From: a virus
Lineage: Duplodnaviria; Heunggongvirae; Uroviricota; Caudoviricetes
Length of the DNA stretch: 8,376 bases
IMG/VR virus record: IMGVR_UViG_2671180743_000009
Strand: one strand, 5' to 3'
In this document: piece after piece, positions 1 to 953 of the stretch
Position numbering within the stretch: the stretch's first letter is position 1
Layout of the letters: the number at the start of each line of letters is the position of its first letter
Made by a program: the position numbers and the translations under genes
The notes under the pieces: generated by a model
Database searches by the model: none
What the model saw: only the letters and a program-made list of their open reading frames with translations
Told to the model about the DNA's origin: nothing

Positions 1-63
1 GCCGGCACTGCCGGCGGAGGTGCCGTAGGCAATGCCTGTTGATATTTTTTCCATCTGATACAT
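1..63 (-). CDS. S21/EssD-type pinholin (class II holin), N-terminal 21 codons only; gene continues past the window start
   Basis: Reverse complement of 1-63 translates MYQMEKISTGIAYGTSAGSAG, matching from memory the dual-start N-terminus (MKSMDKISTGIAYGTSAGSAG) of phage 21 S and DLP12 EssD. Two in-frame ATGs three codons apart fit the holin/antiholin dual-start motif. Position, first gene after the Q/tRNA region, fits a lysis cassette. Confidence 0.6.
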   Translation of the reverse strand, partial: MYQMEKISTGIAYGTSAGSAG

Positions 64-642
64 ATCCCGCCCCCCGACAGACCTGTGCTATCGCATTAAA
101 AAAGATCGCGTAGCATTCTTAATTCATGAGGAACTTTACCCGCCAGCAATCTGAGTAGCGAAAGCTGTTCATCCCCAATGTTTTTGCTGGCGGGTCCTTT
201 TTTCTACGGTCCTCCTCCCCGGAGGGGGGCATTTCATTATTTTTCTAATCGTTACTGGTGAGAAGGCGGAAGAAAAAGCCAGTTCTTCGCCCCTAAATAA
301 CAGCATGATTCCAGTCCATGCAAAATCTGATTTCCAGCTCACACATACCGAGCGCTGTACAAAAAACCGCCAGCCAAGGCAGTTAAGAGTGTGTTCCCGG
401 GGTTTGCTTAGAATATTTTGTAAGTTGTCCGAAGAGATATTTACAACACCAGAATGATGAATCATCAGTCCCCTGCCAGAGGTTCACTACGTAACCTGAC
501 CGACAATGCACCATTCTGGTGCTGAAAAAAGAGCACTGGAACTGCAACAAAACAACATCACAGAACAGGAGATGGTAAGGAGTCAGACATTCCCACACAA
601 TATTGTGTCAGTGCAAATAACAACCTTCGTCTCAAATCTCGC

Positions 643-717
<75 letters not shown>

Positions 718-720
718 ATA

Positions 721-796
<76 letters not shown>

Positions 797-798
797 GC

Positions 799-875
799 TG
801 GCCCACCACCGAGGACTCGAACCTCGCACCGTCAACTTAGAAGGTTGATGCTCTATCCGGATGAGCTAGTGGTGG
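799..875 (-). tRNA. tRNA-Arg, anticodon UCU
   Basis: Reverse complement CCACCACTAGCTCATCCGGATAGAGCATCAACCTTCTAAGTTGACGGTGCGAGGTTCGAGTCCTCGGTGGTGGGCCA. All four stems are Watson-Crick, the anticodon loop is CTTCTAA, and CCA is encoded. The molecule starts with an unusual C1-G72 pair. Confidence 0.75.
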
Positions 876-876
876 T

Positions 877-953
877 TGGTGGCCCTTGCTGGACTTGAAC
901 CAGCGACCTGGCGATTATGAGTCGCTCGCTCTGACCAACTGAGCTAAAGGGCC
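877..953 (-). tRNA. tRNA-Ile2, anticodon CAU (lysidine type, ileX/ileZ-like)
   Basis: Reverse complement GGCCCTTTAGCTCAGTTGGTCAGAGCGAGCGACTCATAATCGCCAGGTCGCTGGTTCAAGTCCAGCAAGGGCCACCA. Anticodon loop is CTCATAA. Acceptor, anticodon and T-arm segments resemble E. coli ileX from memory rather than elongator or initiator tRNA-Met. Confidence 0.75.

Follow-up and report, generated by a model that had tools for sequence, protein, structure and literature searches.

What does a lambdoid prophage keep between its tRNA genes and its lysis genes when nothing suggests a toxin gene there? The question is raised by a window of 8,376 nt (the whole stretch of DNA that was analysed, from the Caudoviricetes record IMGVR_UViG_2671180743_000009), in which the late genes lie on the minus strand. 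In other lambdoid prophages the same slot carries Stx2, TerB, a sialate esterase or a porin, and in SerU-LTIIb the LT-II genes are found just past the lysis genes. A sequence-only reading of the window had described the slot as about 580 bp with no convincing open reading frame (ORF), and had listed three structures within it: a perfect 14-bp palindrome, an 11-bp stem around a 34-nt loop and a second GC hairpin. Direct reading of the sequence finds all three where they had been placed. The same reading had proposed a comparison with the homologous region of Stx-converting and phage 21-like genomes; set beside its relatives, the gap resolves into conserved modules. As described below, the gap appears to consist of two conserved, unannotated RNA elements, namely the folded tail of a tRNA-Gly and a damaged, oppositely facing, sRNA-like cassette.

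Layout of the gap

The left end of the window (1-54, minus strand) is the 5' end of a class II holin gene with its ATG at 54-52, as assigned from the sequence and from the RefSeq annotation of L001, a 99.6%-identical locus. The gap had been taken to start at 64; given the position of the holin ATG, its true left boundary is 55, and the distance between the lysis cassette and the tRNA array is 588 bp (55-642). On the other side are four tRNA genes (643-953, minus strand) for Gly-UCC, Thr-UGU, Arg-UCU and a tRNA with a CAU anticodon, which is tRNA-Ile in the RefSeq annotation of relatives. Further on, the ORF at 1143-1817 encodes a DUF1133 protein that is annotated as antitermination protein Q in the phage record ON470595.

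The gap falls into three pieces when it is compared with E. coli genomes, phages and IMG/VR contigs. The first (55-93, minus strand) is a holin leader, identical to that of L001 and common to other regions upstream of holins; in phages PhiR5_2, PhiR12_3 and PhiR12_4, the DNA that immediately precedes holin S has 88% identity to window positions 55-104. The second piece, which we call module b, covers 94-349, and the third, module c, covers 355-642. The whole arrangement is present at >99% identity in nine of 5426 complete E. coli genomes.

Coding potential

Four ORFs of at least 50 aa are found in the region, with lengths of 98, 71, 61 and 50 aa. None of them matches Pfam, a PHROG search gives nothing better than E = 0.27, and in relatives their frames are disrupted by indels or stops. 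With no ORF conserved and none matching a protein family, whether in Pfam, in PHROG or through the relatives' frames, the earlier view that 64-642 holds no convincing ORF stands.

The gap might still hide a small protein gene, or the decayed remnant of a toxin or other cargo gene, since stx, LT-II, porin, TerB and esterase genes occupy the slot in other prophages, and since PGAP calls short hypothetical proteins over parts of both module b and module c in some relatives. The lack of Pfam and PHROG matches speaks against this, as does the fate of the PGAP frames: a 63-aa PGAP ORF of the EC14 variant is interrupted by a stop in the window's clade, and the module c ORFs are broken in relatives by indels whose lengths are not multiples of three. 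A 10-codon ORF with its ATG at 126 stays open in all module b variants; however, it has no ribosome-binding site, its changes are mostly non-synonymous and it lies largely within a conserved stem. Coding signal is absent from the gap, and we consider a hidden or decayed gene highly improbable.

A putative structured trailer behind tRNA-Gly

Module c (355-642, minus strand) is best described as a putative structured, non-coding 3' trailer of the prophage tRNA-Gly, a description that draws on genome matches, fixed spacing and structure. Matches are found in 233 of the 5426 E. coli genomes. Relatives with 355-642 have no more than 68-75% identity, low enough for an informative comparison. A wider pattern search collected 133 copies, comprising 54 unique sequences with a mean identity of 77%. 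The motif lies 126-143 nt downstream of a tRNA-Gly on the same strand in 125 of the 133 copies, and module c trails tRNA-Gly regardless of which gene comes next (TerB, a holin or a tolA-like gene).

The structure was predicted with RNAalifold for the minus strand. A 5' domain (615-532) would be closed by a GCACTG/CAGTGC helix (615-609 with 538-532) and contain an inner helix (563-556 with 549-542). After this domain, the alignment has an invariant U-run at 530-525, and a long hairpin of about 25 bp (527-440) would form by pairing of 527-501 with 467-440, with an apical helix of 481-478 and 473-470. An intrinsic terminator called at 384-359, with its stem at 384-365 and its T-run at 364-359 (minus strand), would close the unit of tRNAs and trailer in the window's lineage; it is kept in nine of ten relatives, and other lineages have a better stem and T8.

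Among 13 sequences, 97.4% of the alignment cells in the module c pairs are paired, as compared with 33-56% when the partners are slid along the sequence. Nine pairs are changed on both sides versus 5.0 in shuffles, and none of 500 shuffles matches the observed pairing or covariation score, although kinship among the sequences inflates these shuffle statistics. For the long hairpin the paired fraction is 99.7% in the same number of sequences, with 14 pairs varying on one side and two on both sides. When all 54 unique sequences are used, 97.6% of cells are paired (23% G-U), and the alifold energy is -39.0 kcal/mol versus -1.1 for the reverse complement; with an energy so much lower on the minus strand, the structure is a feature of the minus-strand RNA. 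Strand-specific pairs have been maintained through substitutions, and module c on the minus strand, 355-642, has the best comparative support of any element in the region. The U-run at 530-525 together with the long helix may point to a stable RNA that is released by processing, or to an RNA-processing site of the RNase III type.

The sequence-only reading had overlooked this minus-strand RNA and had listed the 14-bp palindrome, ACACAATATTGTGT, at 595-608. The palindrome is there, and is the sole perfect one of its length in the window. Dinucleotide shuffles contain 0.53 such palindromes on average and 44% of them have at least one, so it is not significant by itself and was rejected as a DNA site. 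It would form a small stem-loop inside the 5' domain of module c on the minus strand, and the element to which it belongs is therefore this opposite-strand module rather than the hairpin cassette. As judged by eye from the alignment, relatives appear to retain the palindrome hairpin with both sides changed (ACACA/TGTGT versus GCGTA/TACGT).

Directly upstream of the tRNA array, at 992-963 on the minus strand, a sigma-70-like promoter is called (TTGCAG-17-TATTAT); in strain M15 both hexamers are retained and the spacer is different. Taken together, this promoter, the fixed spacing from tRNA-Gly, the structure and the terminator suggest that the tRNAs and their trailer are a self-contained transcription unit inside the late operon.

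An sRNA-like cassette on the opposite strand

Module b (94-349, plus strand) was defined from its copies in E. coli genomes and their alignments, and can be described as a conserved, unannotated, sRNA-like cassette that is truncated on its left side in the window. Going outward from the holin, an intact copy contains a 10-bp late-strand terminator with its T-run, then TTGACA, 17-18 bp, TAAAAA(T), about 35 variable nucleotides, a 12-bp stem, CC and T6. All 47 fully flanked copies have the TTGACA. A promoter is called in the EC14 variant (TTGACA-18-AAAAAT, 10 of 12 matches), and in the intact relatives the arrangement is TTGACA-17-TAAAAA. The -10 box of the window's clade, TAAAAA, is followed by AG, so that the final key T is missing, and the promoter scan makes no call there. 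The RNA predicted for intact copies is about 95 nt long, with the sigma-70-like promoter about 95 nt upstream of the hairpin and T-run.

In the window itself, the -10-like box TAAAAA can be read directly at 97-102 (plus strand), where it has survived the deletion described below. The putative small-RNA body, from folding, would extend over 104-203, its start having been placed from the -10 box; it would begin with the variable ~35 nt of the 5' part and go on into a forked terminator hairpin with a U6 tail behind it. The terminator stem (138-195, from direct reading and folding) pairs 138-149 with 184-195: CCCGCCAGCAA (139-149) and TTGCTGGCGGG (184-194) pair without a mismatch, and A138-T195 lengthens the stem to 12 bp. 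Within the 34-nt loop there is an inner hairpin of 8 bp (152-159 with 164-171) with a GAAA loop, and after the stem comes TCCTTTTTT (195-203).

Several features assign this hairpin to the plus strand. The T-run at 198-203 (CC, then T6) is 3' of the stem on that strand only, and two G-U pairs of the inner hairpin are possible on that strand only. Folding 94-245 gives -49.7 kcal/mol and z = -3.55 for the plus strand versus z = -2.12 for the minus strand, and the covariance model R1, built for the module, gives 176.8 bits on the plus strand versus a partial minus-strand match of 14.4 bits. In the module b alignment, substitutions are concentrated in the 5' ~35 nt and are nearly absent from the hairpin and its loop. 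No covariation is seen in the terminator stem, the copies being too alike, and in one variant the stem has an uncompensated mismatch; the predicted stem structure comes from thermodynamics and from conservation, and the latter could have other causes.

The second GC hairpin, with its T-rich tail, is called as terminator-like at 209-230 on the plus strand with nine pairs, or at 211-229. It is strong in the window's clade and weak or lost in other variants (in EC14, for example, the sequence is CCTCCTCCCCAGGAAAAGC). Beyond it, the alignments show a conserved right arm of the module (245-349), which contains a promoter-like match (264-236) and a weak terminator-like hairpin (321-303), both on the minus strand.

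As the sequence-only reading had noted, both hairpins are terminator-like on the plus strand, opposite to late transcription. Its suggestion that they mark the 3' end of a small antisense RNA is the reading that fits best for the first hairpin and T-run, which lie in a conserved cassette that has a sigma-70-like candidate promoter in intact relatives, at a position like that of the validated PasA/PasC and PapR-like sRNAs; the poor conservation of the second GC hairpin does not favour including it. An intact module b would have the anatomy of an sRNA gene that is about 95 nt long, ends in a Rho-independent terminator and is opposed to late transcription. Two general features of such genes are present: a GC-rich 3' hairpin is followed by a run of at least six U, and there is no conserved coding frame.

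Distribution and genomic contexts of module b

Searching the 5426 complete E. coli genomes with window positions 94-343 finds matches of about 85% identity in 1427 of them, including 643 plasmid places. No feature is annotated under the matches except for an occasional hypothetical protein. With one genome per species surveyed, module b is limited to E. coli and Shigella flexneri, and none of the deposited phage genomes carries it.

The copies occur in several settings: in prophages such as that of EC14, directly upstream of a class II holin; in an island of CFT073, among IS remnants and 2.2 kb from papI; and in ColV-type plasmids, beside iss and Rz/Rz1 remnants. Intact copies lie, for example, at 3451741-3451986 of NZ_CP051263.1 (CFT073) and at about 2081360-2081720 of NZ_CP065615.1 (FDAARGOS_943). 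A holin start lies to the left of the module in 35 of the 47 fully flanked copies. The orientation relative to lysis genes or their remnants is identical in every context, which indicates that the copies belong to prophage DNA and do not form a mobile element of their own.

A deletion specific to the window

Pairwise alignment with L001 reveals a 101-bp deletion in the window, with its junction at 93/94. The lost segment held the late-strand terminator (GGCCATCAG..CTGATGGCC and a T-run), which is called in L001 and in L006, as well as the plus-strand TTGACA -35 box. Among 58 collected copies, the window is the only one without this segment, and in nine of nine near-identical E. coli genomes the corresponding span is about 100 bp longer than in the window. 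No microhomology is seen by eye at the junction. By chance, a CCGACA at 74-79 now lies 17 bp upstream of TAAAAA. Because the deletion took both the -35 box and the strong late-strand terminator, the module b copy in the window is probably crippled, and would be weakly expressed or dead. The deletion was another feature overlooked in the sequence-only reading, in which the hairpins described would represent the surviving terminator end of the unit.

A candidate late promoter and the mRNA leader

The sequence-only reading considered the true late promoter not to be obvious near Q, and suggested that the structures in the gap might be parts of the late mRNA leader, possibly Q-utilisation (qut) elements. 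In lambdoid phages, the late promoter lies next to Q and is overlapped by the qut site. The window has a candidate for this arrangement at 1137-1042 (minus strand), immediately behind its Q-like gene. In four contexts whose flanking DNA differs, the 49-nt block 1137-1089 hardly varies, and an intrinsic terminator follows at 1064-1042, in which the stem sequence changes and the pairing stays. The block and terminator would correspond to the classical order of late promoter, qut site and first terminator after Q. The remark on the late promoter holds to the extent that no canonical -35/-10 pair is found beside Q; it needs to be amended by this candidate block and its terminator. A TTGACG that overlaps the Q stop codon was tried as the late -35 box and discarded, as it is not conserved.

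The structured part of the gap is 500-1080 bp away from the Q-like gene, past four tRNAs. As qut must sit at the Q-adjacent late promoter, and the conserved block and terminator occupy that place, the proposal of Q-utilisation elements in the gap is not supported. In a broader form, the structures would serve as parts of the late-mRNA leader, either in qut-type antitermination or in translational control of the holin. The late mRNA does span the whole region when Q acts, and module b adjoins the holin in most of its flanked copies. However, the expected place for qut is >900 bp away and already filled, the terminator signature and G-U pairs of 138-195 belong to the plus strand, module b also exists without any holin in the CFT073 island and the ColV plasmids, and module c follows tRNA-Gly whichever gene comes after it. 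We therefore find a role as leader elements very unlikely.

Two transcription units or insulators

The explanation that we favour, at slightly better than an even chance, is that the gap comprises two non-coding, moron-like transcription units placed between a Q-controlled late promoter and the lysis genes. It starts from what is observed in the genomes: the conservation of the modules, their boundaries and contexts, the strand-specific structure of the trailer, and the deletion.

Unit 1, on the minus strand, would use the promoter at 992-963 to transcribe the four tRNAs and the trailer of about 280 nt (642-355), ending at 384-359. Because it has its own sigma-70-like promoter and intrinsic terminator, it could be expressed from a repressed prophage; polymerase modified by Q would run on through the unit as far as the holin gene. 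The ~25-bp hairpin of the trailer may be, as a guess, an RNase III-type site at which the tRNA array is cut out of the long late transcript, or it may belong to a stable, tRNA-derived sRNA. Unit 2, on the plus strand and antisense to late transcription, would be an sRNA gene in intact relatives. Pairing of its RNA with the late-mRNA leader immediately before the holin would be unavoidable, and the RNA could also act in trans, like the neighbouring prophage small RNAs. In intact copies, the late-strand terminator that is deleted here would act as a shield of the holin. That either RNA is produced and has a function is what we infer from this layout.

Some of the same features would be expected if the hairpins were transcriptional insulators only, stopping stray transcription into the lysis genes or into the tRNA/Q region, with no functional RNA involved. 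Intact copies have terminators on both strands (the 10-bp one on the late strand, and the hairpin with T-run on the plus strand), and there are two or three terminator-like sites on the late strand between the tRNAs and the holin. On the other hand, insulation would not call for several of the features seen: the conserved TTGACA promoter 95 nt upstream, the near invariance of the 34-nt loop between flanks that differ by ~15%, and the helix of about 25 bp that is kept by G-U-compatible changes at a fixed distance from tRNA-Gly. Insulation without an RNA product seems to us doubtful.

Within the two-unit explanation, a further step would be that both modules are functional, undescribed regulatory RNAs: module c a new structured family tied to tRNA-Gly, and module b a new family of trans-acting sRNAs. 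This we put forward only as a tentative possibility. If true, at least 133 prophage copies would have module c linked to tRNA-Gly, as a stable sRNA or as an RNase III-controlled gate between expression of the tRNAs and of the lysis genes, and the idea of regulatory RNAs derived from tRNA operons would be extended to phage tRNA arrays. Module b is found in roughly one in four complete E. coli genomes, its copies including those on ColV virulence plasmids beside iss and on a uropathogenic island near pap, and the variability of its 5' end would direct it to different host genes from lineage to lineage. If expressed, it would be a widespread and overlooked regulator, including in the ColV plasmids of poultry and extraintestinal strains. 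Prophage sRNAs encoded before lysis genes (AsxR, AgvB, PasA-D, PapR, STnc100, StxS) rewire host metabolism and virulence, and the catalogue of prophage sRNAs is known to be incomplete and strain-specific. For the window itself, the region is ordinary non-coding prophage cargo in which one cassette has been damaged.

Comparison with known small RNAs

The Rfam/Infernal scan that had been proposed along with the sequence-only reading was run, and gives no accepted family match in 64-642. With Rfam 15 and E-values up to 1, the only matches are two chance ones of microRNA models to the long hairpin, with 20.1 and 18.8 bits versus gathering scores of 140 and 245. Modules b and c of eight relatives have no Rfam match at E-values up to 0.05. 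Covariance models of known prophage RNAs in Rfam, including STnc100, AgvB, AsxR, Esr41 and IsrK, do not match the gap. Searching full-text literature with the hairpin sequences returns unrelated papers only, and nothing usable for module b was found in published UPEC sRNA screens.

A regulatory RNA in a comparable position is IpeX, which in DLP12, a cryptic lambdoid prophage of E. coli K-12, has the Q homologue on one side and the holin gene on the other, and which corresponds to the 3' untranslated region of nmpC, a porin gene. Kinship with IpeX/DLP12 was rejected, as the K-12 nmpC-essD intergenic region does not align to module b.

For module c, the closest parallels in layout are RNAs that accompany tRNAs. 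The 3' external transcribed spacer of a tRNA operon, 3'ETS-leuZ, is an sRNA sponge, and the tRNA cluster of phage T4 yields the stable RNAs C and D. Like these, module c is non-coding, would be cotranscribed with tRNAs and lies between the last tRNA and the operon terminator. The comparison is of layout only, and module c differs in being far longer (about 280 nt) and dominated by the ~25-bp hairpin.

For module b, the closest are PasA and PasC of EPEC E2348/69, which are encoded in lambdoid prophages, in the intergenic region that directly precedes the holin/lysozyme operon and on the strand opposite to it (Pearl Mizrahi et al. 2021, PMC8550237). Their family limits were set by blastn, and their 3' end is conserved; for PasA, divergence of the 5' part has been described along with conservation of the 3' part (Zhu, Shabalina & Storz 2026 preprint, bioRxiv 10.64898/2026.05.13.724894). 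Module b has this location and orientation too, and a similar predicted make-up: ~80-100 nt, a 3' stem-loop with poly-U, a conserved 3' portion and a divergent 5' portion. The order of parts at PasA in E2348/69 is also the same, namely holin, late-strand terminator, TTGACAA and antisense sRNA. Differences are that the 34-nt terminator loop of module b holds its own hairpin, that the window copy has no -35 box, and that module b is a prediction from sequence. The E2348/69 prophage PP2 has neither the tRNA array nor modules b and c.

Module b could accordingly be a divergent member of the PasA/PasC group instead of a separate family. Apart from position, orientation and order of parts, a MAFFT alignment brings out an A-run then GCCNNCAG...CTGANGGC, TTGACAA, a GCCAGC stem and CGAAAG in the loop as shared elements; these motifs are short and have low information content. 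An nhmmer profile of 24 module b copies, run at maximum sensitivity against the PasA and PasC loci of E2348/69, gives chance matches with E > 3, and an unfiltered search of the PasA/PasC loci L007 and L008 with the covariance model R1 finds nothing at E-values up to 10. Homology is rejected as far as HMMER and Infernal can resolve it, and we regard membership as unlikely. Module b would be like prophage sRNA genes in layout, and not a demonstrable member of their families.

Another neighbour is PapR (of the EcOnc08 type), an Hfq-dependent sRNA in antisense orientation (PMC4546395). As the CFT073 match is 2.2 kb from papI, the possibility that module b is PapR was considered and dismissed: the PapR terminator CCCAGCGCGGGCTTTTTT, taken from the supplement of the PapR paper, is absent from the window even with three mismatches allowed. 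The PapR 5' primer sequence GGGCTGAAGTCCGGAAGTT is absent from the six loci L001-L006, in which it was searched for. The terminator CCCAGCGCGGGCTTTTTT is found beside module b in L006, and there is a full PapR homologue in E2348/69. In the EC14 variant, module b is followed by a PapR-like unit of promoter plus terminator and a convergent STnc100 (RF02076; 115 bits). PapR and STnc100 thus share the moron slot with module b, lying immediately to its right in the EC14-type prophage, and the PapR-like sequence appears to be a mere neighbour of module b in some prophages. The window differs in having no STnc100 match at E up to 1.

In EHEC prophages, the moron site downstream of the late promoter holds convergent sRNA genes with conserved 3' and variable 5' portions (Tree et al. 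2014, PMC4104026). The anti-sRNAs AsxR and AgvB are 51-60 nt long and belong to the Rfam families RF02702 and RF02703, which have no match in the window; what they have in common with the gap is the site itself, a moron position downstream of a Q-antiterminated promoter that is used for small RNA genes. The two RNA elements proposed here fit this known habit of prophages, in which small RNA genes are kept at the same spot.

The small-RNA-like cassette and related loci

Module b, the conserved cassette on the plus strand at window positions 94-349, has a right arm (245-349) that matches its small-RNA-like core in degree of conservation. A promoter-like match lies within this arm on the minus strand (264-236). 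If this promoter is active, its RNA would be fully antisense to the putative small RNA of module b and, if made, would end at the late-strand terminator, which is deleted in the window. The missing segment of 101 bp is present in the closest relative, FDAARGOS_943, where an IS1A element, absent from the window, separates the Q-like gene from the tRNA array (L001 4215-4912). Since each change is found in only one of the two alleles, we place them two independent rearrangements apart.

Module b also occurs on ColV-type plasmids (L005 2216-3242), where it adjoins Rz/Rz1 remnants and lies about 500 bp away from iss, a gene for serum survival. The iss region is thus what remains of a prophage lysis region after decay, with this non-coding cassette and its TTGACA box retained.

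In the prophages of EC14 (L006 2270-2553) and E2348/69 (L086 1621-1979), a PapR-like sRNA unit and a copy of STnc100 (RF02076) are arranged tail to tail on opposite strands. The E2348/69 sRNA known from RIL-seq as 'E2348C_1409.E2348C_1408.IGR' appears to be a PapR homologue, as it contains the PapR primer sequences.

The tRNA array and its flanks

A fragment of the LT-IIb phage SerU-LTIIb contains two copies of the unit formed by tRNA-Gly and module c, its structured trailer (L010 3400-3716 and 5300-5622). Each is followed by a holin1-type gene, which indicates that the tRNA-trailer-holin block was duplicated as a whole.

In the window, a promoter-like TTGCAG-17-TATTAT on the minus strand (963-992) immediately precedes the first tRNA; strain M15 keeps both hexamers with a different spacer. 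This putative promoter suggests Q-independent expression of the array. The CAU-anticodon gene (877-953), called tRNA-Met by ARAGORN and tRNA-Ile by RefSeq in near-identical genomes, probably encodes a lysidine-modified tRNA-Ile; the RefSeq naming parallels ileZ of Stx phages.

Directly downstream of the Q-like gene, a 49-nt block followed by an intrinsic terminator occupies 1042-1137 on the minus strand. Across four prophage/phage contexts the block hardly changes, and the terminator stem differs in sequence with its pairing kept. An IsrK match at 1043-1116 is weak and sub-threshold (19.9 bits, E = 0.12). From its layout, 1042-1137 is a candidate late promoter/qut/first-terminator unit, and would be expected to yield a short terminated RNA resembling StxS and lambda 6S.
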